Position numbers and translations under genes: made by a program. DNA of 64,000 nucleotides. Source: Minisyncoccota bacterium (GTDB taxonomy: Bacteria; Patescibacteriota; Minisyncoccia; Phycocordibacterales; UBA9973). Below are positions 1,273 to 62,751 of this stretch, in pieces. The notes under the pieces were generated by a model. The model was not told where the DNA came from. It worked only from the letters and a program-made list of their open reading frames with translations, and searched no databases. Location: assembly GCA_041675085.1 (NCBI GenBank), contig JBAYUN010000004.1, positions 2,032-66,031 on the forward strand, read 5' to 3'. How positions within the stretch are numbered: position 1 is the first letter of the stretch; each line of letters begins with the position of its first letter.

Positions 1273-1427
1273 AAAAAATAATTTTTAAACTAATAATAAT
1301 TTCCGCCAAGGGCGGATCAGCCTATGGCTGAAATAATAAAACTTTAAAAGTTCGACCTTAGAAAGCTTATTAGTATTATAACAACTTTTAACCCTTTTTT
1401 TAAGACTTATGTGGATAACTTTGAGTA

Positions 1428-3389
1428 TTATTTATTCAAAATAACACGTGATTGAGGTCCTAGTATACCGTCAGCTTTTAGTCCGTTGTCCGCTTGGAAT
1501 TTCTTTAATGCTACTAGAGTATTGTAGCCAAATTGATTCACCTCTCTGCCCCCTTCTGTGCCAGATACGTTGTAACCTTTTTGATTAAGTTTTTGTTGCA
1601 AACATTTTACTTCATTTGAGTTCTTGCCTTTTAGTAAAGTCCTACTGATTGTACAAATATTTGAATTCTTAGAAATACTAGCTCCCAAGACTTGCCCTCC
1701 TACACATTCTGTACTCATTGAAGTTCTCGGGTAAGAACCAGTATTACCTGCTGCCTTCCAAGAGCTAATAGTTTCGGTCTTGTAGTCTCTAGTACTCGTA
1801 GCACTCGGATACCATTTTTGACAATAAGTTAATGGGTCGATATTGGCACCACTACTACCGTCTGGATCTGTTTGCCAAGTGCCAGATGAATCTGTATGTT
1901 GATTTACTTTACCATACCAAAATGAAATGCGTGGAGTTGTATCGACTGATGGAGTTGTAGGTTCTGCTGGGACCACAGGGTCAGGTGTGACAGGATCTGG
2001 AGTGACTGGGTCGGGAGTAGTCGGAGTTGTCGGTTCTGTTGGAGTGGTAGGTGTAGTTGGAGTCTCTACTGGTGTAGTAGGGGTGACTGGATTTACTGGT
2101 GTAACAGGATTTGTGCCTGGGTCTATGACCGGAGTCTCAGGATTTTCTCCTTTTTTATTGATAGTGAAAAAATCTTTTGAAAAATCTTCAGCTTTTTTAT
2201 CATAAGACTCTGGGCCTAGATGGATTTTAAAATTTTTACCAAATACTATGTCTGGGAAGGAGCCCACAGCTAGAGAAATTTTCTCTTCTCCATCATTCGG
2301 GGTACCCTTCACCAAAATAACAATATATTCTTTTTGATTATTTTTATATATTAAAGATATATTTATTTTTTTATCAGCTGAAGCTTTATTATTTTTCCAA
2401 GTTACTAAAATACTTTCATCTAGATTATAAACTTCTCCACCATTAGGTGAAGTAATTTTAAAGAAGTAAGAATTATTTTCATCTTCATCTATACCAGCTT
2501 GAATACATAAATAAGACAACTTTGTAGAAGTGTGATTATTAAAATTGTATCTCTCATGCCAAGTACTAATAGTCTCTAATTTGTATTCTTTGATGCCAAT
2601 AGTTTTTGGATACCATTTTTTACAATAAGTTAGATAATCTAAATTCGCACCAGAGATACCGTCGGGATCTGTTTCCCATTTACCATTGGTTGTATTAATA
2701 TGTTGATTTACTTTCCCCCACCAAAACATAACTCTAGGTAATAAATCATCACTACCTGGTTTGTCTTCTCCTTTCTTTTCTTCCACGATAGCATCATCTG
2801 ATTTTTTGTCTTCTGTTTTTACCTCTGTGGTTTTTGCCTCTTCTTTGACCTCGGTTTTCACTTCACTTACTACTTCTTTTTGAACTTCTTCTTTAGCTTC
2901 ATCTTTCTTCGATTCTGTTGCATTTTCTGAATTTTCTATTTTTTTATCTTCTTCTTTAATTTCTGTTTTTTCTACATCTTTGACTTCGTTGGACTGAGTC
3001 TCAGAAACAACACTTTCTTCTTTTTGGACTTCTTCTGTACAAGTTAATTTATTGATAGTCTCGCGAGTAAGTGGACCCACGAAGCCAGCAGAGACTAGAT
3101 TGTTGTCTCTTTGAAAAGTCCTAACAGCTCCTAAAGTCTGCTCTCCAAAGTATCCATTTGGTTCTGCTTTTAGATAACCTTTTTCTTTTAAGAAATTCTG
3201 CAACAACAAAACATCTCTTGTATTAGACGCTCTGTCAGAAGCACGATATCTCAAACTCTTATTAATAGAAACACAAACAGCAGAATTCTCTGTGTTTTGA
3301 ATTTGCTCTATTTCAGCATTTTGAGCAAAAGAAAAAATAGGGCTAATTATAAAAGTTAAAACCAATACAAGCTTTATGATTTTTTGCAT
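1428..3389 (-). CDS. Secreted cell-wall-associated protein: signal peptide, N- and C-terminal PG_binding_1 domains, Glu/Lys-rich and Pro/Thr-rich linkers, two copies of the YWWGKVNQH..LTYCKKWYP domain
   Basis: 653-aa ORF with PG-binding motifs (LQNFLKEKGY..FG..T..AV..FQ, and C-terminal VKCLQQKLNQKGY..DGILGP). The repeated modules are PRVMFWWGKVNQH.. and PRISFWYGKVNQH... Confidence 0.8.
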   Translation of the reverse strand: MQKIIKLVLVLTFIISPIFSFAQNAEIEQIQNTENSAVCVSINKSLRYRASDRASNTRDVLLLQNFLKEKGYLKAEPNGYFGEQTLGAVRTFQRDNNLVSAGFVGPLTRETINKLTCTEEVQKEESVVSETQSNEVKDVEKTEIKEEDKKIENSENATESKKDEAKEEVQKEVVSEVKTEVKEEAKTTEVKTEDKKSDDAIVEEKKGEDKPGSDDLLPRVMFWWGKVNQHINTTNGKWETDPDGISGANLDYLTYCKKWYPKTIGIKEYKLETISTWHERYNFNNHTSTKLSYLCIQAGIDEDENNSYFFKITSPNGGEVYNLDESILVTWKNNKASADKKINISLIYKNNQKEYIVILVKGTPNDGEEKISLAVGSFPDIVFGKNFKIHLGPESYDKKAEDFSKDFFTINKKGENPETPVIDPGTNPVTPVNPVTPTTPVETPTTPTTPTEPTTPTTPDPVTPDPVTPDPVVPAEPTTPSVDTTPRISFWYGKVNQHTDSSGTWQTDPDGSSGANIDPLTYCQKWYPSATSTRDYKTETISSWKAAGNTGSYPRTSMSTECVGGQVLGASISKNSNICTISRTLLKGKNSNEVKCLQQKLNQKGYNVSGTEGGREVNQFGYNTLVALKKFQADNGLKADGILGPQSRVILNK

Positions 3390-3409
3390 AAAGATATTAT
3401 ATCAGTTAT

Positions 3410-6505: not shown

Positions 6506-9500
6506 TTAAATTTTAATAAATCTTTTAATTAAGAAACTGCTCAATAATACTATAAATATAATAACATAAAAAGAAGTATTTTTATTTGTATTTTTTTCTT
6601 TTAAGACATCTACTGATTCCTTCGGGCTATCATCTGCAATCTCTTCTGCTTCTATCTGCACAGCACCTTCACTCTTATTTTCGATCAATACTTTTTCTTC
6701 TTTTTGTATTTTTATATCTTCACTCTGACTAGGTATTTCTGACTCGACTCCTAGAACTATACCGATACTTGGAGTAATATTTTCTGTTTTTGATACTAGC
6801 TCTTTTTTAGCTTCATTATCTTTATTTATCAATATCACTACTCCATGAGAAGACGGAGGAGTAATAGGCTCCGGCGTCGCCACCTTGGGATAAATTGTAT
6901 CTATCGTCCCATCACCGTCTGAATCCACCTTGAGTTCGGCTTTACTAACTTCAAAATCTTCTCCAATATAAAGATACGCCAAAGTCTTATCCGAGCTAGG
7001 TATCATTTCAAAATAATTCTCTTGTATTATATTGTTGCCCTCTTGCCTCTCGACGTCTAAAGTAAAACTACCTTCTTCATAGCCGTCTAATTGCAAAGTG
7101 TACGGAATACCTGCAGGCGCTGAGATGAATTGAACTGTGCCAATCATATCATAATTCACATTAGGTATTTCTTGCTTTATCTCTTTTGTGACGGGATCGA
7201 GTCCTGTATATCTACCCTCTTTATCAAAGATACCCAAGGTTAAAGGTGAGTGTAAGGTGAAATGAAGACGAGCATTACTTGCAACAAAATTCAAATTATC
7301 ATTTTTTAAAACAATCCCTTCGTTGTCAGTGAAAACTTTATCAGTAATTTGCGCCTGAATAAATTGTATTAAATTCTGAATTTCTAAAATATTTTTATGG
7401 TCTCTTCTGGGTCCAGGTAAACTGTTAAAAAGAGGCAAATTAATAACCCACTCCTCCACATTCTCACGATTTTCCATCCACAAAGCACTTGGAAAAGCTA
7501 CTGTCGAATCTCCATCGACCGATACTATCGGTTTATGCGAAACGTATTCTCTACCTAGTCCGAGGAGTTTGCGTTTGATTACATATTTTAATCCTACTTT
7601 TGTTTCTTCGCCCCAACCTGCAACTTCTATGATTTTAGTGTTTGGACTCGGTTGCCAATTGTCTATGACTCCATGAGTTAGTTCTGCTTGAGAATATAAA
7701 TACTCATTTACTATGTTTGGCTTGTCGGTATCACTGACGCTAGGTTTAGCACGCCCGTCACCACCCAAAACAAAATCTTTTAATTCTTCTTTTGTGTTGA
7801 TAGAGCTACCGTATTTAGATATTAAATTTTCTAATAAAGGATGATCTTGGAATGATAGAATTGGATTTTGATCTGTATCTACAGTATTAAAATATCCACT
7901 AGATGGAGCTAGGTTGTATATCGTCGGCATATTCTCTCCGAATTCCCGAGACCGCTCAGAAGGCATCAGTATACCAAAAGGCCCTAAAGGTACGCCATGG
8001 AGCATAGCGATAGTCGCCTCTGGTGTGCCGACTTGAGGCACAGCTATAAAAATTATTTTTTCTATTTGGTTGTAGAGTGGATCATTTGTATCTTTTAATT
8101 TCTGAACCAAGGCTTTGATAACGAGTCCTCCGGTACTGTGGGCTATAAGAGTGACTTTGCCTGTCCTAGAAGTTCTCTGTAATTCACGCAACTCACTCAC
8201 AATAAATGATTCAGAAAAATCGCCACTATTTAAATATGACAAATTCTCTCCGATAACTTTCCCGTTTATAATAATATCTTCTAAAGAAAGTCTCCAATCA
8301 TAAGGAATCAGAGCATAGTCTTCAATCAAACTCAATTCAGTATTTTTCAAATTTCTTAAATCCGCAATAAATGATTTATAAATATTCACAGTCAAAGCTT
8401 CGTCAATAACTCCGAGCTCTCCGCCGTCCCCTTCTACACTCTCAGTATCATTTTTTGTATAAACATTATTTTTACTTTTCCCAAATTCATCTAAGAACAT
8501 AAACTCTTGCAAAACTTTATGTGGTGAAACCCAAAGTTGTTGCTCTCCACAGAACATAGGATCCCTAGGCGTAACCGAACTACAATCAAAAACTTCACCA
8601 TACATTCTAGAACCTTGCACTCCCGGGAAAAACATAACATTAGAATTACAATTTTTTACACACTCTTCTACTGGTGGCCAGCTAGGTAGCCAAGGTTCAA
8701 AAAGGATATGTTCACTCACAGAGTCGCCAAGCCCATTAGGATTTAAATCCACATGATACGGCCCAGTAGCGTCACCCCAATAATTATTGTTAAAATCTAA
8801 ATCTACGTCTCTAAATGTAAAAGCTCCCGATAGAATATTGTTATGTATATTACTTTTATTTGCTGAGAATACTGAGTCGTAAACAACAAAACCATATAAG
8901 TTATCAGTGATCTCGCTATCAGTTATTTTTACAAAACTATCTCCAAAATTATTAAAAACAATAAACCCAGAATCCATAGCCCCAAAGACTTTTACTTTTT
9001 TAAAATTAGCCTGTACGTTGTTGAATAAAGACATACCATAAACACCACAATTCACAGACCCAGTATTAAAATCCACCGCAGAATTATTGTAAACAGAAAT
9101 CCCAGTATTATCACAAGATATCTCAGAATTCAACATATTAAGATGAGAATCATTATAAACTAAAAATCCACCACGACTACCACTTAGGCTCCCGTCTTTG
9201 AAATTCAAATTACTATTACCAAATACAGATATGCCAGAATTAGATTGATCAAGACTCAGGATATCTACATTAGTGAATGATGCTGAAGCATTATTATAAA
9301 TATTTACAATAGAATCTTGATTAAGACTCTCAACTTTAGAATTTTTTAATATTAAATTGCTGTAATCCTGGACTTCTATTTTTGCCTCGCCCGAGAAAAG
9401 AGAGTCATTTATCTCAACCATACTAGAGTCGTACAAATACAAACTCGTCGCTTTTAAATCTGCAAATTCTGAATTAGTTTCAAAAAATAAAATATCATTA

Positions 9501-10477
9501 TTGGTATCTAGTCCAGTCGACTGCGCCCGACCACCCTCATAAAATACAAACAAATTTGACCTATTTATAATATAGTTCAAAACTGAATTTCCCGAATTGT
9601 CCCTAATCACAAGATCCACATAACCATCAAAATATACAGGGTCCTCCTCTGCACCCAAAACTTTCAAAACTCCTTCCACAAAGAAAATACTAGAATTAAA
9701 TTCTACCACTACTCCAGGCTCGATAACCAAAGTCGCTCCCGAGGCAAGAGTGATATCTTCGTTGACTACATACGGACTACCCTCTTTTGTCCAAGTTGTA
9801 TCTGTAGTAATATCGTCTAAGATTACTGTCCCAGTACCACTATCAGGAGAATCATCTTCACTATCTGATAAAATATAATTCACCGAAAGAGAAATAAAAT
9901 CATGCCCCGTAGTTGTACCGCTTGCCGTCGGAGTCGCGCGATATGCTGAAAATCTAACTTTAGTATTATTTATAAGACTCGCAGTATTCAAGACAGAACT
10001 AGCATCCAAGACATCAACATGATCAACGCTAGAAATACCCACAGTAGATCCAGATATCTCGACAAAACCAACTCCATCCCAAACTTCTATCTTCGATCCT
10101 GCCAAAGCACTCGAACGCTGAAATTCATGATTTATTTTTACTTCATTTATCACCGCATTTGCTGGAACATTTGGCGAAAAAATAAATTCGATGTACCTGT
10201 CGGCAACATACGTATTTTCATCTGGCCATTTATCGCTACGCATTCTATCTACTCCATTACCCGGCTCAGAATCAGAAAAACTTAATTTTTCAATATCACC
10301 TTCTGAAAAAATCTCGGCAACACCAGAACTTTGATCCACACCAGAAGTCACATAATAGACCCCCATATTTTCTGCAATAACTACAGAAATAAAAAAACTG
10401 TTCAACAGAACAGCCATAAGAACAAAAACAAAAAAGTTTTTAAAAATAGAAACCCTGGTTTTTCCTACCAGCGACAT
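6506..10477 (-). CDS. Giant (1323 aa) surface protein: signal peptide, parallel beta-helix repeats, alpha/beta-hydrolase (lipase-like, nucleophile elbow AHSTGG) domain, C-terminal TM anchor
   Basis: An N-terminal hydrophobic segment is followed by repeated N/D/G-rich beta-helix-like units. VTLIAHSTGGLVIKAL is a GxSxG nucleophile elbow, and the terminal FYVIIFIVLLSSFLIKRFIKI is a membrane anchor. Confidence 0.75.
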   Translation of the reverse strand: MSLVGKTRVSIFKNFFVFVLMAVLLNSFFISVVIAENMGVYYVTSGVDQSSGVAEIFSEGDIEKLSFSDSEPGNGVDRMRSDKWPDENTYVADRYIEFIFSPNVPANAVINEVKINHEFQRSSALAGSKIEVWDGVGFVEISGSTVGISSVDHVDVLDASSVLNTASLINNTKVRFSAYRATPTASGTTTGHDFISLSVNYILSDSEDDSPDSGTGTVILDDITTDTTWTKEGSPYVVNEDITLASGATLVIEPGVVVEFNSSIFFVEGVLKVLGAEEDPVYFDGYVDLVIRDNSGNSVLNYIINRSNLFVFYEGGRAQSTGLDTNNDILFFETNSEFADLKATSLYLYDSSMVEINDSLFSGEAKIEVQDYSNLILKNSKVESLNQDSIVNIYNNASASFTNVDILSLDQSNSGISVFGNSNLNFKDGSLSGSRGGFLVYNDSHLNMLNSEISCDNTGISVYNNSAVDFNTGSVNCGVYGMSLFNNVQANFKKVKVFGAMDSGFIVFNNFGDSFVKITDSEITDNLYGFVVYDSVFSANKSNIHNNILSGAFTFRDVDLDFNNNYWGDATGPYHVDLNPNGLGDSVSEHILFEPWLPSWPPVEECVKNCNSNVMFFPGVQGSRMYGEVFDCSSVTPRDPMFCGEQQLWVSPHKVLQEFMFLDEFGKSKNNVYTKNDTESVEGDGGELGVIDEALTVNIYKSFIADLRNLKNTELSLIEDYALIPYDWRLSLEDIIINGKVIGENLSYLNSGDFSESFIVSELRELQRTSRTGKVTLIAHSTGGLVIKALVQKLKDTNDPLYNQIEKIIFIAVPQVGTPEATIAMLHGVPLGPFGILMPSERSREFGENMPTIYNLAPSSGYFNTVDTDQNPILSFQDHPLLENLISKYGSSINTKEELKDFVLGGDGRAKPSVSDTDKPNIVNEYLYSQAELTHGVIDNWQPSPNTKIIEVAGWGEETKVGLKYVIKRKLLGLGREYVSHKPIVSVDGDSTVAFPSALWMENRENVEEWVINLPLFNSLPGPRRDHKNILEIQNLIQFIQAQITDKVFTDNEGIVLKNDNLNFVASNARLHFTLHSPLTLGIFDKEGRYTGLDPVTKEIKQEIPNVNYDMIGTVQFISAPAGIPYTLQLDGYEEGSFTLDVERQEGNNIIQENYFEMIPSSDKTLAYLYIGEDFEVSKAELKVDSDGDGTIDTIYPKVATPEPITPPSSHGVVILINKDNEAKKELVSKTENITPSIGIVLGVESEIPSQSEDIKIQKEEKVLIENKSEGAVQIEAEEIADDSPKESVDVLKEKNTNKNTSFYVIIFIVLLSSFLIKRFIKI

Positions 10478-10520: not shown

Positions 10521-10553
10521 CTGTGGATAACTATCCAAGGGCATCCCTTGGAT
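10521..10553 (+). repeat. REP element copy A (ctgtggataactatccaagggcatcccttggat); overlaps the 3' end / stop region of the RAYT gene
   Basis: Nested palindromes tggata-ac-tatcca and atccaaggg-cat-cccttggat. The element contains TGTGGATAA, the reverse complement of the DnaA-box consensus TTATCCACA. Confidence 0.85.
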
Positions 10554-11193
10554 GATTTAACCATTCGTCTATTTCTTTTAGAAAATCTTGCTTTGAAGTA
10601 AAATATTCTGGAAAAGCTTTTATGTTTAGAATCAACACTTCCCTTCTAGGTACTTCTAAAAAATCTAAATAGCTCGAGTTGCTGTAACTGTACAAATAAT
10701 CTTTAGTTTTAGATAAATCATTTATACCTTGCTCCTTCCAAGTTGGGTCAAAAATCTTTACAGGATTGAGGTGAATATACATAAAAATATATTTTAAATA
10801 TTCATCAGAATCTAAATGCTCGGCTCGGAACCTACCTTCAAACAATTTACCCGTCCTGTCGTACTTCTTGTTGAAATACATAGAATACGCAGTCGATAAT
10901 TTCTCCATAAAAATACTAATACCGTTTTCTTGTTTTTCTTTTAGCAATAAATGAAAATGATTTGGCATCAAACAATAACTGCCAATATCGACAAGAGTTT
11001 CGCCTCGTTCTATCTTGTCCAAGGGCACCCCTTGGATAGTTTTAAAGACAACTGGTTTCGAGCCATTGCATACAAATAAAAGCTTTATAAACCTCTTGTA
11101 GTCAAAATCATCCAAAAATATCAAGGATTTATTGTTTCCCCTATTGTAAACATGATAGTATTCGTTAATTGAAAAATTTATCTTTCTTTCCAT
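10531..11193 (-). CDS. tnpA_REP: REP-associated tyrosine transposase (RAYT, IS200/IS605-type Y1 HUH transposase)
   Basis: HUH motif (YCLMPNHFHLLL), the HVYNRGNN motif and conserved Tyr residues downstream. A degenerate REP lies inside the ORF (11027-11050). Confidence 0.8.
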   Translation of the reverse strand: MERKINFSINEYYHVYNRGNNKSLIFLDDFDYKRFIKLLFVCNGSKPVVFKTIQGVPLDKIERGETLVDIGSYCLMPNHFHLLLKEKQENGISIFMEKLSTAYSMYFNKKYDRTGKLFEGRFRAEHLDSDEYLKYIFMYIHLNPVKIFDPTWKEQGINDLSKTKDYLYSYSNSSYLDFLEVPRREVLILNIKAFPEYFTSKQDFLKEIDEWLNHPRDALG

Positions 11194-11223: not shown

Positions 11224-11247
11224 ATCCAAGGATTGACCTTGGATTTT
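11224..11247. repeat. Degenerate REP-like palindrome (atccaagg attgac cttggat)
   Basis: Same arms as the REP but a different loop. Confidence 0.5.
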
Positions 11248-12000: not shown

Positions 12001-12036
12001 TTATCCAAGGGATGCCCTTGGATAGTTATCCACAGG
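12001..12036 (-). repeat. REP copy D (reverse orientation)
   Basis: ttatccaagggatgcccttggatagttatccacagg. Confidence 0.85.
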
Positions 12037-13589: not shown

Positions 13590-13630
13590 TAACACAAACA
13601 AAAAGCTAAATCATAAATTTATGATTTAGC
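13590..13630. terminator. Bidirectional terminator (14-bp perfect palindrome agctaaatcataaa/tttatgatttagct flanked by A- and T-runs)
   Basis: Seen directly in the sequence. Confidence 0.55.
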
Positions 13631-13643
13631 TTTTTGTTCTACC

Positions 13644-13676
13644 CTGTGGATAATTATCCAAGGGCATCCCTTGGAT
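13644..13676 (+). repeat. REP copy E, followed by the gggaaggtc-aga-ccttccc hairpin (13680-13705)
   Basis: ctgtggataattatccaagggcatcccttggat. Confidence 0.85.
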
Positions 13677-13713
13677 TTTGGGAAGGTCAGACCTTCCCTT
13701 TTTTAAGATTAAA

Positions 13714-13956
13714 TTATTCAGTGTAAAAAATATTGTTTATCTCTTCAAGAGTTAGGAATGGTTTCAAAGCTCTGATTATAGCTTTCTGTGTTCCCCTATC
13801 TAATTCGTCATGATTTGGTATTGAGATATTTTGAGTTTCGTTTATATTAACACGACTTAATCTTATATGACTTCCTTTTTGCCTAACAACAACAAAACCA
13901 AGCGCTTCTAATTCTTTAATAATTTCTTTACCTGAAAGTCTTTTAAGATTAGGCAT
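13714..13956 (-). CDS. hicA: HicA-family mRNA-interferase toxin
   Basis: GSHIRL.. and IPNHDELDRGTQKAIIRAL match the HicA/YcfA fold signature. The gene overlaps hicB by 8 nt. Confidence 0.7.
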   Translation of the reverse strand: MPNLKRLSGKEIIKELEALGFVVVRQKGSHIRLSRVNINETQNISIPNHDELDRGTQKAIIRALKPFLTLEEINNIFYTE

Positions 13957-14170
13957 ATATCATATCTGCTAAATCAAAATTAATCATAACAGGATGAGAA
14001 ATATTATCCTTTTGATCAACTTCTTCGAAATACAAATCTGTAGCTTCTTTTATATTACTTACAAGCTCCTCAAAGGTTTTACCTTGAGTTACTATCGCAT
14101 AGTCATTTGCAGAGCCGACATAATAGCCGTCTTCTCCTTTTTCTATTTTAAATAATACTATTTTTGACAT
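13949..14170 (-). CDS. hicB: HicB-family antitoxin (short, UPF0150 domain only)
   Basis: YYVGSANDYAIVTQGKTFEELVSNIKEA motif, lying upstream of and overlapping hicA. Confidence 0.6.
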   Translation of the reverse strand: MSKIVLFKIEKGEDGYYVGSANDYAIVTQGKTFEELVSNIKEATDLYFEEVDQKDNISHPVMINFDLADMIYA

Positions 14171-14236: not shown

Positions 14237-14269
14237 CTGTGGATAACTATCCAAGGGCATCCCTTGGAT
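14237..14269 (+). repeat. REP copy F
   Basis: Identical 33-mer. Confidence 0.85.
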
Positions 14270-14280
14270 GTGGCAAATAC

Positions 14281-14604
14281 TTATTTTTGTTTTTTCTTTT
14301 CTAATAAGTACACACGAGAAGCTAGTTCGTCAAACATACGATGAGTAACAAATTTATCACCTAGATCCAACATATCTCTACGAGTTGCTTTAACATTTTC
14401 GTCTATTTGTTTTACTTTTTCATCTAAAGCATCAAACTTAGAATCTATGCCATCGAATTTAGCATCTATAGCATCAAATTTAGAATCTATACGTTCAAAT
14501 CCCTTAGCAGTCATAATAGCTAAGTTGTTTACAGTTTCTGAAAGATTGTTAACAGTACCTGCTAAATCTTCGATAGTCATTTTCTTTTTTACGACTTTCT
14601 TCAT
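14281..14604 (-). CDS. Small coiled-coil protein with 8-aa tandem repeats (SKFDAIDAKFDGIDSKFDALD)
   Basis: 107-aa ORF with about 24-bp periodicity in the DNA at roughly 14425-14500. Confidence 0.6.
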   Translation of the reverse strand: MKKVVKKKMTIEDLAGTVNNLSETVNNLAIMTAKGFERIDSKFDAIDAKFDGIDSKFDALDEKVKQIDENVKATRRDMLDLGDKFVTHRMFDELASRVYLLEKKKQK

Positions 14605-14610
14605 TCTTTA

Positions 14611-14640
14611 ATTATATCACACAAGAATTTTGTGATGCAA
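14611..14640 (-). promoter_or_regulatory. Sigma70-like promoter TTGCAT-N18-TATAAT only 6 nt upstream of the ATG, which predicts a leaderless transcript
   Basis: The minus-strand read is ttgcatcacaaaattcttgtgtgatataattaaagaATG. The sequence is identical at 16459-16488. Confidence 0.5.
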
Positions 14641-14925
14641 TCTGTATTTATAAAGGGTCTAAAAAAGGAGCTGTGGATAACTATCCAAGGGCATCCCTTG
14701 GATTGGGAGTTTTGGATTTTGGGAAGGTCGGACCTTCCCAGATTTTGGTTTCTTGGTCTTGGGTAGGTCTGACCTCCCCTTTTTAAAATACAAATTGGAA
14801 CGCAAAAAGCCCTCGCTTTCGCGAGGGCTTTTTGCTGCTTTTTACGGCATCCCCTAAAAGTTTTCTTCTTTATTATTTCTTATTTATAAGATTGCATTAT
14901 TCTTTTAGTTGAGTCAAACTTACAA
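14611..14925 (-). repeat. Composite intergenic cassette, unit 1: promoter + REP copy G (14670-14702) + gggaaggtc hairpins + conserved terminator (14803-14843) + AT-rich tail
   Basis: Long stretches are shared with the units at 15735-15955 and 16456-16732. Confidence 0.7.
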
Positions 14926-15025
14926 ATTATTTTAAAGTTATCCACAATTATTTGCTTTTATTTTTAAAAAAATATATAATATAAGTGTTATTCAAAAAAG
15001 CCACCTGCAAAGGGGGCTTTTTTAT

Positions 15026-15649
15026 TTATATGGATACTACTGGTATTTCTTTCTTTATATTTTCTTTAATATCCAAAAGAGACATATAAAATACTTTATC
15101 TTTCTTTTCACTAACCAAAGCTCGTAGTTTAGTTGAATACACAGCAACAGTAAGCCCAGACTTGATGTCTCGACCAGCATAAGAAACTATTGTAACTTTT
15201 GTAACTCCTTTTTCAAGAGCCTTTCTTATAACATATTCAAAATCTCCATCCCCTGTAAAAATCAACAACTCAACGTCAGGAGCAGATTTATCAATAACAT
15301 CAACCGCCAGTTCCACATCACAATTAGCTTTCTTGCGATATCCCATATTTATAATTTGAATATTATCTTTCAAGCACCCAGAACATTTAAAAGCTATAAT
15401 TTTATCTTTATTTTTGTAAGAAAAAATTGATTTACTTTTAACGATACAACAAGGAGTTTTATTTAATAGATCAAATTCTTTTGCTGTTTCTATATCACCA
15501 TTATCGATACCTGTATAAAAAAGAACCTCAGAACAAGATTTTTTATTTTTTAAAAAGTCAGCTACTTTCATCCAGTCAACAACAAAGTCTAACATTTTTT
15601 CAGTTGTACTTGCTGTATTTTGAACATCCACAAAAGCATATCTTTTCAT
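15026..15649 (-). CDS. NYN-domain (LabA-like) putative RNase; the ORF extends to 15697 but the likely start is MKRYAFVDVQN
   Basis: The acidic residues FVDVQN.., DVELAVDVID and LIFTGDGDFEYVI are typical of PF01936. Confidence 0.65.
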   Translation of the reverse strand: MKRYAFVDVQNTASTTEKMLDFVVDWMKVADFLKNKKSCSEVLFYTGIDNGDIETAKEFDLLNKTPCCIVKSKSIFSYKNKDKIIAFKCSGCLKDNIQIINMGYRKKANCDVELAVDVIDKSAPDVELLIFTGDGDFEYVIRKALEKGVTKVTIVSYAGRDIKSGLTVAVYSTKLRALVSEKKDKVFYMSLLDIKENIKKEIPVVSI

Positions 15650-15734
15650 AAATAAAATTATACTATATTTTTTTCCTTCATTCAATACGATAAACATAAG
15701 CTGGATTTATGAAAGTTAATACATACAATCTGTT

Positions 15735-15955
15735 TTAAAACTAGGCTGTGGATAACTATCCAAGGGCATCCCTTGGATACGGGGTTTTGGTGAGTAGTGG
15801 GTAGTGGATATTGAGATTGGAACCCCAGTCAGTCGCGACTGACTGGGCAAGAACGCAAAAAGCCCTCGCTTTCGCGAGGGCTTTTTACTGCTTTTTGCGG
15901 CATCCCCTAAAAGTTTTCTTCTTTCTTATTTCTAAGATTGAATTATTCTTTTAGT
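15735..15955 (-). repeat. Composite cassette, unit 2: REP copy H (15746-15778) + 22-bp perfect palindrome ccagtcagtcgcgactgactgg (15825-15846) + terminator hairpin (15862-15881)
   Basis: Sequence identity with units 1 and 3 across aacgcaaaaagccctcgctttcgcgagggctttttgctgcttttt..attgaattattcttttagtt. Confidence 0.7.
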
Positions 15956-15963
15956 TCGAGATT

Positions 15964-16452
15964 TTAACTTAGAACTTTTTCTTCTAGGATTTCTATTCTT
16001 CTATCGTGATTATTTACAGTATCAGACATATCATCAAATTTTTCATTTAACTCTTTGAAGTTTTCTCTAGTTTCTATTTTAAATGATTTTAAATCTGTTT
16101 CAAGATTATTAAAATGAGTATTAGTTTCAAGTTTAAAAAGATTCAGATTAGTTTCTAAGCCATCAACTTTATCAGTTAGCTTAGAGACACTAATTGCAAC
16201 AGTTTCAACTAATTGAGTAAGGCTTCCTAGATCACTTTTTATATCAACTATGTCATTCTTAACACCAGCCATATCTCCTTTAAGACCACCTATGTCATTT
16301 TTAATGTCGAGCAAGTCTTCCTTGGTGGCGAAAGACTTTAGGTCTTCTTTGGTAGCGAAAGACTTTAGATCTTCTTTAGTGGCAAGATTTTCAAGATCTT
16401 TTTTGGTTAAGAATATTGAAGCTAATTTTTGTATGTCTTGATCTGTTAACAT
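15964..16452 (-). CDS. Coiled-coil tandem-repeat protein (LKSFATKEDL x3, 27-bp DNA repeats 16315-16395)
   Basis: 162-aa ORF; paralogous to 63119..63604 through the ATKEDL repeats, and shares its promoter with 14281..14604. Confidence 0.6.
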   Translation of the reverse strand: MLTDQDIQKLASIFLTKKDLENLATKEDLKSFATKEDLKSFATKEDLLDIKNDIGGLKGDMAGVKNDIVDIKSDLGSLTQLVETVAISVSKLTDKVDGLETNLNLFKLETNTHFNNLETDLKSFKIETRENFKELNEKFDDMSDTVNNHDRRIEILEEKVLS

Positions 16453-16455
16453 TCT

Positions 16456-16732
16456 TTAATTATATCACACAAGAATTTTGTGATGCAATCTGTATTTATA
16501 AAGGGTCTAAAAATGAACCTGTGGATAACTATCCAAGGGCATCCCTTGGATTTATGGTTTTGGGTTTTGGGGAGATCAGACCTTCCCTTTTCTTTTTTTT
16601 CCTTTTTTAAAATACAAATTGGAACGCAAAAAGCCCTCGCTTTCGCGGGGGCTTTTTGCTGCTTTTTACGGCATCCCTTAAAAGTTTTCTTCTTTCTTAT
16701 TTCTAAGATTGAATTATTCTTTTAGTTCAAAA
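16456..16732 (-). repeat. Composite cassette, unit 3: promoter (16459-16488) + REP copy I (16519-16551) + hairpin + terminator (16633-16652)
   Basis: As for units 1 and 2. Confidence 0.7.
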
Positions 16733-20046: not shown

Positions 20047-20640
20047 TATTTTTTTTAATTACGCCATTAATAAGTTTCGACAAAACTAAAAGCGTATTTT
20101 CTATCGTCCTCATCCCTACTTAATTAATAAATAATAATAATGCGTAGTGACTTGCGAGGACAAAAAGATTTGAACTAAACTTGAAAACATAACTAAAGAC
20201 ATTTGCAATTGTGATGCAAACATTTTTATTGTATTAAGTTTTCAATGACCTTTCTTTTACCGAATCTTTGCAATAAATTTATTTTACTAAACTTAAAACA
20301 AAGACAGGCTTTGATCCTTTGTGTACTAAATCTTTTCGACGAAATTTAGCAACAAGATCTTATACTATATATAAGTATGAGAATAAGACTTTCGTAAAAT
20401 TCTTCACACTAATAATATATACGTATACATTATAATATAGACTCTCGAATAAGAGCAATATTACAACGTGTGGATAACCGATAATTTCGCATAAGAAAAA
20501 TAAATTCTTCGCTAGTTACTCCACCTATCTATATTGGCATATTTTTGACATAAAAGCAAACACAAATTAGGTTCTAGTCGCTAGGTTCTAGGTTCTAGGA
20601 AAATGCAAAAATGCAAAAAACAAAGAAAGGTTATTAGAGA

Positions 20641-21564
20641 TTATTTTTTGAAAAAATATCTGGACCATCTCTTCTCCCCTGTCTTATACAATAGGTTGTC
20701 CTTTACCAGGGAGACGAGTTCTCTCTGGAGAGTCTTCTCACTCATGGTGGTGAATTGACCTTTTGAGAGGGAGCGAACTTCGGTTATCGTGAGTCCGTTA
20801 GGGTTGTCCTTTATCACGGATACTATCTCTGTACGGCGTTCTTGCTTGCTCGTGTTATCTTTGATATTCTCTTTATTTTTATCGTAAACTTTTGGAATAT
20901 TTTTGTTCGTATCTCCTGCCTTGGTCTTCGTCTTTGCTTCGATTTCTTTCAAAGCTTTGAGTAGGGTGCTACCCTTTTGGAGTCCGATATTGGTCGGAGC
21001 TTGTCTGATAGATTTCTTTAATCTCTCCATGTGTGACCTCTGATCTGCGTGAGAGAATTCTTGCTTTACTTCGAACATTTTAGGGCGAGATTCTAGTCTG
21101 TCTTTTATCTCGCGATTTGGATTTTGGAGAGCGTTTTGATTTTGAGTATTTTCTTCATCTTTGAATAAGTCAGATAGTACTTGGTCGCTGTAGGGATTCC
21201 TATTACCGAGAGAATCTTCGACTGACTTTTTGAAAAGATAGAATTCTTTTTTTAAGATATCGGCATTCATCTGAGACATGAGTTTTACATTACTTGAGAT
21301 GTCTAATAGAACTAGAGTTTGAGATATTTTATTTAGTAGTCCGATAGATATGTAGTCTGTCCTTGATGAGAAGGTAGATATGTCCGATATGATTTCTAGC
21401 CCTATATTTCTGAGTTTATTCCTTATGCCTTCTTGTTTGTCCATTATGTCCGTGACCATAAAGAGAGCTGTGATGAGTTTGTGAGACTTGGTGTAAGAGA
21501 AAGACAAAGTTGTGTCTTTTATATGAAAACCGATGTCTCTTGTATTGTTTTCATTATTTTCCAT
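20641..21564 (-). CDS. Hypothetical protein with a C-terminal winged-helix DNA-binding domain
   Basis: The C-terminus reads ..LTITEVRSLS..SEKTLQRELVSLVKDNLLYKTGEKRWSRY; the N-terminal 220 aa are unassigned. Confidence 0.5.
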   Translation of the reverse strand: MENNENNTRDIGFHIKDTTLSFSYTKSHKLITALFMVTDIMDKQEGIRNKLRNIGLEIISDISTFSSRTDYISIGLLNKISQTLVLLDISSNVKLMSQMNADILKKEFYLFKKSVEDSLGNRNPYSDQVLSDLFKDEENTQNQNALQNPNREIKDRLESRPKMFEVKQEFSHADQRSHMERLKKSIRQAPTNIGLQKGSTLLKALKEIEAKTKTKAGDTNKNIPKVYDKNKENIKDNTSKQERRTEIVSVIKDNPNGLTITEVRSLSKGQFTTMSEKTLQRELVSLVKDNLLYKTGEKRWSRYFFKK

Positions 21565-21606
21565 GTGTCCATTATATATTTCTCTCGGACTTTTGCAAGC
21601 CCGAGA

Positions 21607-21715
21607 TTAGGTTCTAGTTTCTAGTTACTAGGGGCTAGGTTCTAAAATTAGTTTCTAGTTTCTAGTTGATAGGTTCTAGAAAGCAAACAACTAAACACTA
21701 GCACCTAGAAACTAA
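21607..21715. repeat. Array of CTAG-containing direct repeats (taggttctag / tagtttctag) phased at about 10-11 bp; shorter arrays at 20568-20599 and 26041-26068
   Basis: At least seven TTCTAG cores within 75 bp, in the divergent region between the winged-helix gene and ftsK. Confidence 0.6.
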
Positions 21716-25444: not shown

Positions 25445-26032
25445 ATGGCAACTTTAGAATACAGTGAAATAAGAGAAAAGAAGATTATTATTCATGATGA
25501 TGAACCTTGTGAAGTTATCGAGTCTCATGTAGCTCGGACTCAACAACGTAAACCTCAAAACCAAGTAAAACTAAAAAGTCTTGTCTCAGGAAAGACTTTT
25601 GCAGCTACTTTCCACGTATCTGATAAGGCAGACGAAGCTGATATCGAGAAAAGAGATGTAAAGTTCTTGTATGCAAACAAAGGTGAATACTGGTTCGCGG
25701 ATCCAGAAGACCCAAAGAGTAGATTTAAATTAGATGCGGCTTTGGTATCAGATTCAGCTAAATTCTTTAAAGAAAACGGACTAGTCCAAGCTATGGTCTG
25801 GGACGACGACGGTGAAGAGAAGACTATTAAAATCACTCTACCTATCAAGATAGACTTTAAGGTCAAAGAAGCTCCCCCTGCAGTCAAAGGTAATACCGCT
25901 CAAGGAGGCAACAAGATAATTACTCTAGAGAACGGCACTACTGTGAACGCTCCTATGTTTATCGAAGAAGGCGACGTTGTATCTGTAAATACTGAAACTG
26001 GGACTTATGTAGAGCGTGTGACTAAGATATAA
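25445..26032 (+). CDS. efp: Elongation factor P
   Basis: EF-P KOW/OB signature; 195 aa. Confidence 0.85.
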   Translation: MATLEYSEIREKKIIIHDDEPCEVIESHVARTQQRKPQNQVKLKSLVSGKTFAATFHVSDKADEADIEKRDVKFLYANKGEYWFADPEDPKSRFKLDAALVSDSAKFFKENGLVQAMVWDDDGEEKTIKITLPIKIDFKVKEAPPAVKGNTAQGGNKIITLENGTTVNAPMFIEEGDVVSVNTETGTYVERVTKI

Positions 26033-26083
26033 GAATTTGGTACTAGTTTCTAGTGACTAGGTTATAGGTTTAAATACAACAAT

Positions 26084-26351: not shown

Positions 26352-26375
26352 CCCTGTCAGTCGCGACTGACGGGG
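26352..26375. repeat. Family-2 palindromic element ccctgtcagtcgcgactgacgggg, in the ssb-rpsR spacer
   Basis: Near-perfect 24-bp palindrome, also present at 15825, 62728 and 63646. Confidence 0.7.
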
Positions 26376-32546: not shown

Positions 32547-34181
32547 TTATTTATTTGTTAAATCCAACTCTACAGAGAAAGTAGAACCAGCGCCTTCGCC
32601 TCCCGACTCCGCCCAGACACGGCCTCCATGAGCCTCTACTACGAGCTTTACAGAGAACAAACCATATCCAGTACTATCTACGTTTACCTTTACGGAATTC
32701 TTGCCTCTACCACCTTCGGTAAATAAATTCTTTTTATCTTCATCATTAATACCTACGCCGGTATCTTTAACAGTGAACAATAATTTATCATTATTTTTAG
32801 CTAGACCGACAGTAATGCTACCCTCTTTGGTATAACGGACTGCGTTTTCTATCAAATTATTTGTAACTTCTTTTAACCAAAAAGCGTCTCCTGAAATAGT
32901 AAAATCAACATCTTGAATTTCTAAATTCATCTTTAATCCTTTGGCCTCGGCTGGAGCACGACGAGATTCGGCACTATCTAGCACCATAGCTTTGAAGTCG
33001 AGTGGAGCCATCTCGTATTTCACTATTCCCTTTTCTAAGTTGAATGCATTTAATACAAGGTCTACAGTCTTAATACCTTCATTATCAGAGTCGAGTCCTT
33101 TTTTAGACATGTCTTTTAATTCGGCACTTAATTCACCAAATCCTCCACCCACCATCTCAGCAAAAATATATTTAGAGCGAGTAAAAGAAGCTTTGACTTT
33201 GTGAGTGATAAGGTGAACTAGAGATTCTCTCTGAGTGAGCAGTCCTTTTAATTCTTCATTTAGAATCTGGAGTTTTTCCCTTTGTTCTATTTCACGACGC
33301 ACCGAACTCACTAAAGCGCGACCTAGGAATAAAGTAAAGGTCAGCGTGAAAGCAACAACCAGCCTCACGTTTTCGATATTTCTAATAAAAGCGATAGATA
33401 GTACAAGAAAACCTAGAGAAAAAACTAGAGCTTGAGTACCGAGTAATTTGATATTGAAAGTCTTAAAACGCACTATCATGTACGCCAAGAAAGCTGCAAA
33501 AATAGGCATACCAATAAGCCCAGCTTGAGCTAAAACCCAATCCTCAGTAAAACTACCGATAAGATTACCCCAAGAAAAAGCCAAAAGAAACAAAACCATA
33601 CCAATACTAAATATACGTATTTCTTTTTTGCGAGCTATTTCTTTAGATTTAATAAATTCTAAAACTGAAAAAATAAATAAGCTCAAAATAATAACCAACT
33701 CCACAAAATAAGTATAGTATTGAGCTAGAGGACCTTCTATTGCTGTACAGTCATCCAGATTCACTCCTTGTAGATTTAATGAGGTGGTAAGAAATATAAT
33801 AATAGGAGCATATAAAGTAAGTAATAAAATTTTAAACTTAAAAGGTAAATCCCTTTCTTTAATAAATACATAAGACAAATAGAAAGCAAAAAGATAAACC
33901 AGAGGCTCTACCAGAACTTGGACAGACCAAGCAAACATAACGATGCGTGGATCGTTGGTAGCCCAGAGCACAAGGTCGATGAGAGACCAAATAGAAAACA
34001 TAATAGTCGTGATAAGTAGAGTGACGCCGACTTTGGATTTCTGAGTCTTGTAGTACACAATGAACCCTGCTAGTAATGCTACTATTAGTGCCGGAAAATG
34101 AGAGTAAAAGAATAACGTCGGTATGTTGCTAGAATAAATATAATAACTTGCTGATTCCCAAGGGCAAAATAATTGTTCCAT
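32547..34181 (-). CDS. Membrane sensor histidine kinase (multi-TM sensor, HisKA + HATPase_c); no response regulator adjacent
   Basis: N box NLIENAVRYT, G1 VKDTGVGI and G2 GYGLFSVK, with at least seven N-terminal TM helices. Confidence 0.8.
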   Translation of the reverse strand: MEQLFCPWESASYYIYSSNIPTLFFYSHFPALIVALLAGFIVYYKTQKSKVGVTLLITTIMFSIWSLIDLVLWATNDPRIVMFAWSVQVLVEPLVYLFAFYLSYVFIKERDLPFKFKILLLTLYAPIIIFLTTSLNLQGVNLDDCTAIEGPLAQYYTYFVELVIILSLFIFSVLEFIKSKEIARKKEIRIFSIGMVLFLLAFSWGNLIGSFTEDWVLAQAGLIGMPIFAAFLAYMIVRFKTFNIKLLGTQALVFSLGFLVLSIAFIRNIENVRLVVAFTLTFTLFLGRALVSSVRREIEQREKLQILNEELKGLLTQRESLVHLITHKVKASFTRSKYIFAEMVGGGFGELSAELKDMSKKGLDSDNEGIKTVDLVLNAFNLEKGIVKYEMAPLDFKAMVLDSAESRRAPAEAKGLKMNLEIQDVDFTISGDAFWLKEVTNNLIENAVRYTKEGSITVGLAKNNDKLLFTVKDTGVGINDEDKKNLFTEGGRGKNSVKVNVDSTGYGLFSVKLVVEAHGGRVWAESGGEGAGSTFSVELDLTNK

Positions 34182-41018: not shown

Positions 41019-41117
41019 ATATTTAATTGTTTTATTATGAAATTAAAAAACTTGTCTAATTTAATAGAAACATAATTTTTATAAAATGTCAATAATAAAA
41101 GATTCAGTTAACGATTG

Positions 41118-41191
41118 TCCGTCCTCATGGATTCGAACCATGGACCCCAGAGGTATAAGCTCTGTGCTCTAACCAACTGAGCTAAGGACGG
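41118..41191 (-). tRNA. tRNA with anticodon UAU (reads AUA), i.e. tRNA-Ile(UAU)
   Basis: Manual cloverleaf: acceptor CCGTCCT/AGGACGG, D-arm GCTC-AGTTGGTTA-GAGC, anticodon stem CAGAG/CTCTG with loop CTTATAC, T-arm CATGG-TTCGAAT-CCATG, discriminator A. Confidence 0.65.
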
Positions 41192-62727: not shown

Positions 62728-62751
62728 CCCTGTCAGCCGCGACTGACGGGG
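62728..62751. repeat. Family-2 palindromic element (ccctgtcagccgcgactgacgggg), followed by a hairpin terminator at 62763-62783
   Basis: Seen directly in the sequence. Confidence 0.65.

Follow-up and report, generated by a model that had tools for sequence, protein, structure and literature searches.

The window analyzed here, a 64,000-nt stretch from a Minisyncoccota bacterium, carries a run of minus-strand genes separated by reiterated intergenic sequence, with TPR, Y1/HUH transposase, LCAT-like, giant surface-protein and FtsK genes as neighbors (Table 1). With a further 6.5 kb, the sequence examined came to about 70 kb of a 529-kb contig, and the modules or REPs described below may also occur elsewhere in the genome. 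Three of the intergenic units, U1, U2 and U3, share identical blocks of 36–64 bases, and five kinds of part are found across them: a short block just past the upstream stop codon, a bidirectional terminator, GC-rich palindromes (either a G-hairpin or a second palindrome, hp2), a 33-nt REP-like element and a sigma-70-type promoter. The initial annotation had described these spacers as reiterated units with long identical blocks; sequence comparison bore this out, and all five elements that it named lie where it placed them or a few bases off.

Table 1. Genes, spacer units and repeat elements of the array, in window coordinates.
Feature	Position	Strand	Description
RAYT-like Y1/HUH transposase	10531..11193	-	220 aa; HFH and YIHLNP motifs
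Peptidoglycan-binding surface protein, 485 aa	12071..13528	-	one REP-bounded unit; absent from sister species
HicB-HicA toxin-antitoxin pair	13714..14170	-	one REP-bounded unit; absent from sister species
Coiled-coil protein, 107 aa	14281..14604	-	the only one of five units also in sister species
NYN-domain nuclease fold	15026..15697	-	absent from sister species; likely start ATG 15647-15649
Coiled-coil protein, 162 aa, ATKEDLKSF repeats	15964..16452	-	absent from sister species
Unit U1	14602..14925	-	gene-strand order: post-stop block, bidirectional terminator, two G-hairpins, REP, predicted leaderless promoter and ATG of 107-aa gene
Unit U2	15735..15958	-	gene-strand order: post-stop block, terminator, hp2 palindrome, REP; no copy of the shared promoter
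Unit U3	16450..16729	-	gene-strand order: post-stop block, terminator, one G-hairpin, REP, predicted leaderless promoter and ATG of 162-aa gene
Promoter of 107-aa gene	14605..14640	-	-35 TTGCAT 14635-14640; 18-nt spacer ending TGa; -10 TATAAT 14611-14616; 6 nt; ATG 14602-14604
Identical promoter copy, 162-aa gene	16453..16488	-	-35 16483-16488; -10 16459-16464; ATG 16450-16452
Bidirectional intrinsic terminator, GCAAAAAGCCCTCGC-TTTC-GCGAGGGCTTTTTGC	14802..14835	both	further copies 15855-15886, 16626-16659
Two G-hairpins, GGGAAGGTCGGACCTTCCC and GGGTAGGTCTGACCTCCCC	14721..14779	+	further copies 13680-13698, 16569-16587
hp2 palindrome, CCCAGTCAGTCGCGACTGACTGGG	15824..15847		separate dispersed family, also at 26352 and 62728
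REP	10521..10553	+	holds stop codon and last 7 codons of Y1 gene; promoter of gene 6506-10477 next
REP, opposite orientation	12003..12035	-	just upstream of TPR-gene promoter; orthologous to single REP there in sister species
REP, head variant ...GATAAT	13644..13676	+	beside G-hairpin 13680-13698, downstream of HicA
REP	14237..14269	+	12 nt past stop of 107-aa gene; HicB promoter next
REP	14671..14703	+	in U1
REP	15746..15778	+	in U2
REP	16519..16551	+	in U3

Pairwise comparison found 263 of 280 U3 positions (94%) identical to U1, with a longest identical block of 64 nt (14602-14665 = 16450-16513) that includes the start codon; U2 and U3 have an identical block of 50 nt in common, and U1 and U2 one of 36 nt. 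The shared sequence begins 4-7 nt past the upstream stop codons and reaches and takes in the ATG, which extends the boundaries given in the initial annotation. Identity between U1 and U3 is 100% through the ATG and gone immediately past it. The post-stop block is the same at 15937-15956 and 16708-16727 and has one mismatch at 14891-14910. On the stop-codon side U3 matches U2 (96%), but past the terminator and across the promoter it matches U1; the three units are mosaics rather than simple duplicates. We rejected an assembly artefact, a possibility that the initial annotation had itself raised: the longest identical block is shorter than the k of 141 suggested by the contig name, and at least two independent assemblies record the same order of genes, making an artefact unlikely.

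Plain local tandem duplication of the 107-aa gene with its flanks, followed by drift and with no special role for REPs or the Y1 gene, would fit copies that are adjacent, in the same orientation and as alike as U1 and U3, each ahead of a gene for a coiled-coil protein. We consider it unlikely, given that identity collapses at the ATG, that U2 has no promoter and a different palindrome, and that the NYN, HicBA and 485-aa protein genes are mutually unrelated and each bounded by REPs. The two coiled-coil genes, previously called paralogous, make a weak case for paralogy because their products are 30% identical over just 46 residues of low-complexity coiled coil; an ORF at 63119-63604 is the true repeat-protein relative of the 162-aa gene (E 3e-10).

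The terminator occurs three times where none is expected by chance, and its 31-nt core is identical in a sister species. Four G-hairpin copies stand against an expectation of 0.05, every one of them with a REP 21-39 nt away. Apart from the main bidirectional terminator, all terminator-like hairpins carry T-runs on the plus strand, antisense to the genes; this confinement of G-hairpin T-runs to the antisense strand is left unexplained by the explanation that we favor below, and counts against it. A plus-strand small RNA running from the REP to the terminators was considered and rejected, as neither inspection by eye nor a scan yielded an acceptable plus-strand promoter, and an Rfam search returned only sub-threshold, terminator-driven matches. 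In U2, hp2 is a 31-nt insertion after GCGTTC; compared with locus L094, hp2 adds 28 nt and duplicates TTGAC.

Both promoter copies read exactly TTGCAT-N18-TGaTATAAT-TAAAGA-ATG. The copy ahead of the 107-aa gene is orthologous to a promoter in the sister species, where the -35, the spacer of 18 nt, TGnTATAAT and the gap of 6 nt before the ATG are all conserved, the gap in length though not in sequence. A palindrome within the promoter, ATCACA-N9-TGTGAT, is not conserved there and was rejected as an operator. Across the ORFs, a -10-like hexamer lies exactly 6 nt ahead of the first ATG in 14 of 60, compared with 1 of 346 internal ATGs, and this is the commonest arrangement in this genome; Shine-Dalgarno-like motifs precede 3 of the 60, and the organism seems to lack Shine-Dalgarno-led initiation for most genes. 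The 6-nt distance predicts that the mRNA starts at the A of the ATG. The leaderless promoters proposed earlier therefore fit both the conserved length of the gap and its prevalence, but leaderless expression as a distinguishing trait of the cassette was not borne out, since the layout appears to be a property of the genome at large. Every transcription unit of the array has a promoter or -10 of its own, either 6-7 nt before the ATG or with a leader; the NYN gene has its promoter at 15657-15685, with TATAAT and 7 nt ahead of its likely ATG. The TTGCATCACAA element, reported to recur about 160 bp upstream of the giant surface-protein gene, does have a third copy there (20209-20219, minus strand), and its distance depends on the start codon chosen: about 95 nt ahead of the long ORF's first ATG, or about 165 nt ahead of the MSNLFK start, the one used in the sister species.

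The REP-like element, CTGTGGATAAYTATCCAAGGGCATCCCTTGGAT, consists of a head, CTGTGGATAAC, and a hairpin with a 9-bp stem, ATCCAAGGG-CAT-CCCTTGGAT, which folds at -8.3 kcal/mol (z = -3.9). Its core is invariant at 32 of 33 positions in seven copies, with none expected by chance. GTGG lies within the head, 7 nt from the stem; neither GTAG nor GTGG stands directly at the foot of the hairpin. All seven copies lie within 6 kb of the Y1 gene, the other ~64 kb examined having none. Between successive REPs lies a single transcription unit, save in the last interval, where there are two. The assignment as REPs, made earlier from the repeats, is upheld by the RAYT-like gene 3.4 kb away and by the REP at that gene's stop codon. 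Among other Patescibacteria genomes, the hairpin is present on several contigs, with 61% of copies outside long ORFs versus 27% of random positions. The full REP form turned up at only three loci in a metagenome scan, none of them with other cassette modules.

The TTATCCACA head of the REP is a perfect DnaA-box consensus, and for this reason we considered a replication origin; this was rejected, as the window has no dnaA and no GC-skew switch, and the boxes occur one per intergenic region. A related reading, in which the TTATCCACA head is what matters and the array consists of sites for DnaA or another regulator, controlling promoters or titrating DnaA with hairpins secondary, draws on 12 exact TTATCCACA copies in the window, where chance would give 0.68; of the 12, 11 lie at 1.4-20.5 kb. 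Five copies have no hairpin, each of them lying between genes or within the final codons of the gene upstream. The sister species shows the same position, and three promoters have the -10 at a fixed distance of 29-32 nt, four at 53-55 nt. Besides the missing dnaA and skew switch, however, the hairpin has a different neighbor in most other lineages, for example TTATCCAA, and it is the hairpin rather than the box that is conserved across the phylum. We regard this reading as quite improbable.

The Y1 protein matches Pfam Y1_Tnp (E 6.5e-9) and NCBIfam REP_Tyr_transpos (NF047646; E 7.5e-11), in the latter case with 42.1 bits, below the cut-off of 80; it belongs to a divergent subfamily. H81, the second His of the HFH (HUH) motif, is invariant in 66 homologues down to 32% identity, while H79 and Y139-x3-N143-P144 are at least 90% conserved; in an alignment of 18 closer homologues, HFH and Y139-x3-N143-P144 are fully invariant. 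A structure model built from those 18 alone was useless (pLDDT 43), a problem solved by the 66-sequence alignment (pLDDT 95.5). PDB sequence searches with the protein found nothing. The best solved-structure match of the model was 4er8_A (E 1.4e-5), the E. coli REP-associated tyrosine transposase in complex with a REP hairpin, followed by IS608 and ISDra2 TnpA.

Three hairpins are associated with the Y1 gene: one holds the stop codon, one lies in the coding sequence (11017-11037, encoding IQGxPLD) and one lies upstream (11224-11244), the upstream copy in the window being degenerate and the downstream copy perfect. The enzyme is 60-70% identical across the phylum, and this layout, whole or in part, was found at 14 of 14 other Patescibacteria loci with the gene, where the hairpins recur at about -0.05, 0.25 and 1.0 of gene length. 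At loci with the full set of three, the upstream hairpin is inverted, and where both lie within the locus the loop of the upstream hairpin is complementary to that of the stop-codon hairpin. Locus L008 reads TGTGGATAAC-hairpin, gene, hairpin-N22-GTTATCCACA.

The one informative sister species (loci L084, L089 and L090) has the order FtsK, giant gene, one spacer, 107-aa gene, one REP, TPR, Y1; it thus has the same flanking genes and a single spacer, and lacks four of the five units. Differences between it and the window have their junctions at REPs, and in its giant-gene spacer the REP is reversed and has changed sides with respect to the G-hairpin. Gene gain or loss bounded by REPs and a REP flipped at the same site fit the earlier suggestion that REPs serve as a recombination substrate. 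The differences may reflect gene gain in the window lineage or, in the sister, gene loss through deletion between repeats.

The initial annotation had gone further, seeing a mobile insulator/expression cassette that had spread with the repeat-protein genes and suggesting strong, coordinated expression; on such a reading, the whole cassette would be an autonomous-looking, MITE-like element that transposes and takes its promoter to new genes. Near-identical spacers ahead of two unrelated ORFs, homology that stops exactly at the ATG and the precise insertion of small palindromes such as hp2 in this genome speak for it. Yet all modules sit in one 3-kb stretch (13.6-16.7 kb) of the ~70 kb, module content differs among units, no target duplications were found flanking the units, and their ends, CATTCTTTAATT... 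and ...TTCTTTTAGTT, do not form inverted repeats. The sister species also has a spacer with an orthologous promoter at the orthologous place, so the spacer is ancestral there, and the loci from the metagenome scan were without the other modules. We thus saw no sign of a self-contained cassette that spread and no evidence of whole-cassette transposition, and find the mobile-element reading improbable.

The REP-bounded units could alternatively form a hairpin-based gene-capture array, an integron analogue in which the Y1 enzyme moves promoter-bearing cassettes as single-stranded DNA at REP/TTATCCACA sites. The array has six of its seven REPs in one orientation beside the Y1 gene, five intervals of one transcription unit each, cargo of the sort that cassette arrays typically hold (a nuclease, a toxin-antitoxin pair and small proteins without known function, for which PHROGs and PADLOC gave no useful names) and four units missing from the sister; a separately inserted 653-aa gene (1428-3389) also has direct TTATCCACA copies on its flanks. 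Against this, other Patescibacteria with the same Y1 gene show 3-5 hairpins round it and no arrays, neither excision products nor cleanly joined empty sites were seen, homologous recombination between repeats of at least 33 nt would give the same pattern, and RAYTs are not known to move cargo. We therefore hold gene capture to be very unlikely. Bolder still, and a longer shot, is the proposal that the phylum-conserved enzyme and hairpin constitute a single-strand-DNA gene-capture system, an HUH counterpart of the integron, whose REP head doubles as a DnaA-type box tying the array to replication.

The explanation that we favor, and think probably right, is that U1, U2 and U3 are copies of a single composite regulatory spacer, reiterated by recombination within a hyperplastic, gene-variable stretch whose REPs were seeded by the resident RAYT. 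This stretch lies between the conserved giant surface-protein gene and the conserved pair of TPR and Y1 genes. The sub-cut-off NCBIfam score of the Y1 protein and the lack of GTAG or GTGG right at the hairpin foot speak against this explanation. Judging from its anatomy, each spacer would end transcription of the upstream gene at the bidirectional intrinsic terminator and restart it from a sigma-70-type promoter, with a transcript beginning at the A of the ATG. By analogy with characterized RAYTs, the REPs would be substrates of the neighboring RAYT-like single-strand-DNA enzyme that accumulated round its gene. Spacer copies were most likely made by recombination between existing copies as accessory genes (the 162-aa coiled-coil protein, the NYN nuclease, HicBA and the 485-aa wall-binding protein) were gained or lost, which would leave each accessory gene between constant regulatory modules running from just past a stop codon to an ATG.

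Patescibacteria have tiny, streamlined genomes, and little is known of how they gain, lose and express accessory genes. The locus offers a concrete architecture, standard regulatory spacers between interchangeable genes with palindromes tied to a Y1 enzyme, and makes testable predictions for transcription start mapping. If the link between REP and Y1 holds, REP/RAYT biology reaches far outside Proteobacteria and includes an unusual case of a repeat anchored inside the coding sequence of its own enzyme; such anchoring could explain why the stem is conserved over large distances.

Several known systems resemble parts of this arrangement. Like integron arrays with attC sites, it consists of genes in one orientation with a repeated site between them that forms a hairpin as single-stranded DNA, adjoins the gene of a DNA-cutting enzyme, includes toxin-antitoxin cargo and varies in content between relatives. 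No IntI tyrosine recombinase, attI or Pc was found within 10 kb on either side of the array, however; the site is a 33-nt perfect hairpin without the R and L boxes of attC, the enzyme is of the HUH type, and every unit has its own promoter, unlike promoterless integron cassettes. Correia elements of Neisseria are small intergenic repeats that supply promoters and terminators and alter the expression of neighboring genes; they are MITEs with terminal inverted repeats and TA target duplications, both of which the units here lack. With IS200/IS605 elements such as IS608 and ISDra2 the locus shares the enzyme fold and subterminal hairpins recognized as single-stranded DNA. It differs in having just one copy of the gene in the sequence examined, with synteny kept across species, in hairpins that are scattered independently of it, and in the absence of a tnpB partner.

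A closer parallel for the spacers is provided by the PeSL promoter/stem-loop cassettes, by which small ORFs are shuffled as modules in hyperplastic regions of T4-type phages (Arbiol 2010, PMC2839356; Comeau 2014, PMC4122927). There, too, reiterated spacers combining a terminator with a strong promoter flank small non-essential ORFs, and the spacers are where close relatives differ by insertion, deletion or replacement. The PeSL family was defined in T4-type phages, and we therefore treat the match as a working resemblance only: the units here lie on a cellular chromosome, span 220-320 nt with REPs and other palindromes, and have a promoter predicted to be leaderless. A further mark of PeSL-type cassettes would be mini-circles produced by recombination between them.

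For the palindromes and enzyme, the counterpart is the REP/BIME and RAYT system of Proteobacteria (Nunvar 2010, PMC2817692; Messing 2012, PDB 4ER8). As reported there by Nunvar et al., REPs gather near rayt genes and stand immediately past the rayt stop codon. In both cases short GC-rich palindromes flank a Y1/HUH gene, one of them directly at its stop codon. Most of the palindromes lie outside genes and form mosaics with other motifs, further copies cluster near the enzyme gene, and that gene is in conserved synteny, as if resident. The differences are that the host belongs to the Patescibacteria, that the stem (TCCAAGGG/CCCTTGGA) is identical across distant classes and not species-specific, that the coding sequence of the enzyme itself contains one copy, that TGTGGATAAC forms the head, with GTGG set back from the stem in place of GTAG at the foot, that copies are single and not REPIN doublets, and that the 220-aa protein scores below the cut-off for curated RAYTs. 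Our search of the literature on REP, RAYT or IS200 together with Patescibacteria found no description of such a system. On the explanation favored here, the region resembles both the BIME mosaics of Proteobacteria and the PeSL cassettes.

The window belongs to a contig of 529 kb in an ENA metagenome assembly. Every close relative of the window is a genome of the Patescibacteria (candidate phyla radiation). G+C ranges from 27 to 43%, and nearly every gene between 0.5 and 21 kb lies on the minus strand. Within this stretch, the initial annotation had described three reiterated intergenic units with long identical blocks (here U1, U2 and U3), and repeat finding, alignment and exact comparison all bear this out. 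Two repeat families, of 138 nt and 107 nt, were found in the units; the longest identical blocks measure 64 nt (U1/U3), 50 nt (U2/U3) and 36 nt (U1/U2), and 263 of the 280 positions of U3 are identical in U1. We rejected an assembly artefact because the final assembly k of 141, suggested by the contig name, exceeds every identical block and the same gene order recurs in at least two further contigs.

Coordinates of features in the window
Feature	Position	Strand	Detail
23S rRNA, 5' end	1-175
653-aa peptidoglycan-binding gene	1428-3389		insertion 1424-3394
Y1 gene	10531-11193	-	220 aa
Degenerate hairpin	11224-11244		31-51 nt upstream of Y1 start codon
REP, also in sister species	12003-12035
A/T-rich palindrome	13597-13638		perfect, 21+21 nt, no loop
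REP	13644-13676
U1; U2; U3	14602-14925; 15735-15958; 16450-16729	-
138-nt repeat family	14602-14739; 16450-16587		92%
107-nt repeat family	14798-14904; 15851-15957; 16622-16728		83-96%
Weak hairpins	14847-14866; 15899-15918; 16671-16690		one per unit
hp2 family	15824-15847		follows terminator
hp2 family	26352-26375		abuts TTAAC
hp2 family	62728-62751		abuts TTGAC
hp2 family, variant	near 63640		abuts TTGAC
TGTGGATAA without hairpin	1410; 3431; 14938 (-); 20469; 44773 (-)
CTAG-rich repeats	20566-20601; 21606-21641; 21647-21682; 26035-26070		ATTAGGTTCTAGTTTCTAGTT...
Leaderless-type starts (examples)	3389; 10477; 20641-21564; 21742; 32547-34181; 38124-38630; 45679; 48994-50358; 57344-58729
tRNA-Ile	41117-41191		anticodon TAT
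tmRNA	43346-43746
ATKEDL-repeat ORF	63119-63604	-	five 39-nt tandem repeats

Module order on the gene (minus) strand is common to all three units. Each opens with AACTAAAAGAATAATTCAATCTTAG, placed 4-7 nt beyond the upstream gene's stop codon, and continues with the terminator GCCCTCGC-GAAA-GCGAGGGC, in which both strands bear T-runs. After it come GC-rich palindromes, one or two in number and separated by A/C-rich spacers, and then the 33-nt element REP, read as a hairpin and then GTTATCCACAG. U1 and U3 end in TTGCAT-N18-TGaTATAAT-TAAAGA-ATG. U2 lacks this shared promoter; in place of the G-hairpin it carries a different palindrome, hp2, which has the look of 31 nt inserted behind GCGTTC. Shuffles predict 0-0.05 matches for the REP hairpin, the G-hairpin (with T-runs on the antisense strand only) and the terminator, all of which lie far above chance. 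The three units are mosaic in make-up: U3 resembles U2 beside the stop codon and U1 from the terminator on. Homology between U1 and U3 ends exactly after the ATG, and the proteins downstream share 30% identity across just 46 coiled-coil residues, so the units do not simply flank two copies of one duplicated gene.

Every unit also holds a weak hairpin that, along the plus strand, comes just after the main terminator; on the gene strand it precedes the terminator and reads TTTTAGGGGATGCCGTAAAA in U1 and U2 and TTTTAAGGGATGCCGTAAAA in U3. It has the 8-mer GGGATGCC in common with REP on the same strand and may be a decayed REP. The palindrome hp2 belongs to a dispersed family, CCCnGTCAGyCGCGACTGACnGGG, whose copies at 62728 and near 63640 abut the -35-like hexamer TTGAC and whose copy at 26352 abuts TTAAC. 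Compared with locus L094 of another species, the copy that precedes the S14 gene is exactly 28 nt of inserted sequence, and TTGAC has been duplicated. The ATKEDL-repeat ORF (an observation that also covers L093, 6007-7588) encodes 13-residue repeats and has a relative in gene 15964-16452 (E 3e-10). It is one of several small genes that form an insertion in the ribosomal-protein operon, between the genes for L5 and S14, where another species has a single gene of 67 aa. The CTAG-rich repeats flank the 307-aa gene 20641-21564 on both sides and also follow gene 25445-26032.

The initial annotation predicted leaderless mRNAs from the unit promoters, which appears well founded, as a property of the genome and not of a cassette. 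Defining a -10-like hexamer as TAnnnT with at most one mismatch to TATAAT, we found one whose end lies precisely 6 nt ahead of the first ATG for 14 of 60 long ORFs, the commonest arrangement, and 6-8 nt ahead of it for 21; other offsets account for 0-5 ORFs each. The 6-nt arrangement occurs at 1 of 346 internal ATGs, and a Shine-Dalgarno-like motif precedes just 3 of the 60 ORFs. In a sister species, the promoter of the orthologous 107-aa gene retains TTGCtT, an 18-nt spacer, TGTGATATAAT and the 6-nt gap to the ATG, which reads TTACTT there and TAAAGA in the window. Conservation of the gap with a changed sequence is the pattern predicted by a constraint on spacing.

REP itself appears to belong to a gene for a Y1 transposase, which lies 3.4 kb from the units. 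The 220-aa product has hits in Pfam (Y1_Tnp, E 6.5e-9) and in NCBIfam (REP_Tyr_transpos, E 7.5e-11, its 42 bits lying under the cut-off of 80), and its HFH and YIHLNP motifs are conserved among homologues; the generic KEGG 'rayT' annotation would catch it. An AlphaFold model built from a 66-sequence alignment (pLDDT 95.5) finds as its best solved structure 4er8_A, the E. coli REP-associated tyrosine transposase with bound REP hairpin, followed by the IS608 and ISDra2 TnpA proteins. A perfect REP hairpin encodes the end of the gene, seven codons plus the stop (HPRDALG-stop), a second hairpin within the coding sequence encodes TIQGVPLD, and a degenerate one lies upstream of the start.

The pairing of enzyme and hairpin extends across distant Patescibacteria. 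The stem TCCAAGGG-N3-CCCTTGGA occurs at 78 loci of GTDB genomes, from Saccharibacteria, Zambryskiibacteria, Yanofskybacteria, Adlerbacteria, Kaiserbacteria, Lloydbacteria and Paceibacteria, and is identical over distant classes while the loop differs by genome. At the 14 loci that also carry the Y1 gene, hairpins lie at about -0.05, 0.25 and 1.0 of gene length (not every locus has all three); where all are present, complementary loops show the upstream one to have the reverse orientation of the others. At locus L008 of a more distant species (Y1 65% identical), the gene is bracketed by a TGTGGATAAC-hairpin on one side and by a hairpin-N22-GTTATCCACA on the other, the arrangement that defines RAYTs (PMC2817692). 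The remaining 106 hairpins are located elsewhere; 39% of all hairpins fall inside long ORFs vs 73% of random positions. The Y1 family is large: more than 7,700 matches from numerous lineages of Patescibacteria have 60-70% identity, and a threshold of E <= 0.001 gives 20,327 cluster representatives. A target-like hairpin inside the coding sequence encodes IQGxPLD in the window and in loci L003-L082, and the variable C-terminal tail often contains the same hairpin in one of two frames, YPRxxLG-stop or IQGxPLD-stop. L008 keeps the order giant gene, REP, TPR, Y1; the Y1 gene is thus resident, in a syntenic position.

All seven full REPs lie between 10.5 and 16.6 kb, with none in the window's other 57 kb or in the 6.5 kb beyond; local build-up around rayt genes is known from some genomes (Nunvar et al., PMC2817692). 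The first five REP-to-REP intervals each enclose exactly one transcription unit and the last encloses two: in order, a 162-aa coiled-coil gene, an NYN nuclease, the 107-aa gene, HicB-HicA, a 485-aa peptidoglycan-binding protein, and TPR plus Y1. The A/T-rich palindrome separates a REP from the promoter of the 485-aa gene. The sister species (loci L084, L089 and L090; Y1 protein 93% identical) has, in this order, FtsK, a 291-aa gene, the giant gene, one spacer, the 107-aa gene, one REP, TPR, Y1 and an LCAT-like gene, without the 162-aa, NYN, HicBA and 485-aa units. Its spacer shares a 31-nt terminator core identical to the window's and carries three further palindromes and a REP in opposite orientation on the other side of the G-hairpin. 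The 107-aa gene's stop codon and the TPR promoter flank its single other REP, which the window retains; an inverted REP lies in the window 12 nt after that stop, with HicBA and the 485-aa gene between the two REPs.

The initial annotation read the unit as a mobile cassette that has spread with the repeat-protein genes. We give this low weight because, in the roughly 70 kb covered, the modules occur at a single place, the unit ends have neither terminal repeats nor target duplications, and the spacer is ancestral at its site. The simplest account would be a hyperplastic region, in which regulatory spacers were copied and recombined during gain or loss of accessory genes and the neighbouring RAYT-like enzyme supplied the REPs. 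Gain and loss, homologous recombination and enzyme-mediated exchange each seem compatible with the sister comparison. The original observation stands, and its interpretation is partly supported.

Read on the other strand, the REP head, TGTGGATAA, gives the DnaA-box consensus, TTATCCACA. The window contains 12 exact copies (0.68 expected): seven REP heads and five without a hairpin, the latter at positions conserved in the sister species. The 653-aa gene is missing from that species, and its insertion is flanked by direct TTATCCACA copies, two of the five without a hairpin; promoter sequences similar over about 50 nt also lie on either side. At seven promoters the box lies upstream of the -10 by 29-32 or 53-55 nt. 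Neither a dnaA gene nor a GC-skew switch occurs within the window, and the sequence neighbouring the hairpin differs in most other lineages. The head may be a regulator site, a cleavage or guide sequence for the Y1 enzyme, or both.

The region would combine REP/RAYT elements with PeSL-like regulatory spacers; our literature search found no earlier description of REPs or RAYTs in Patescibacteria, and PeSL-like spacers are not known to have been described there either. For the palindromes, the closest family is REP/BIME-RAYT. For the spacers, the closest working analogue is the PeSL cassette of T4-type phages, whose reiterated promoter and terminator modules are sites of insertions, deletions and replacements between close relatives (PMC2839356).
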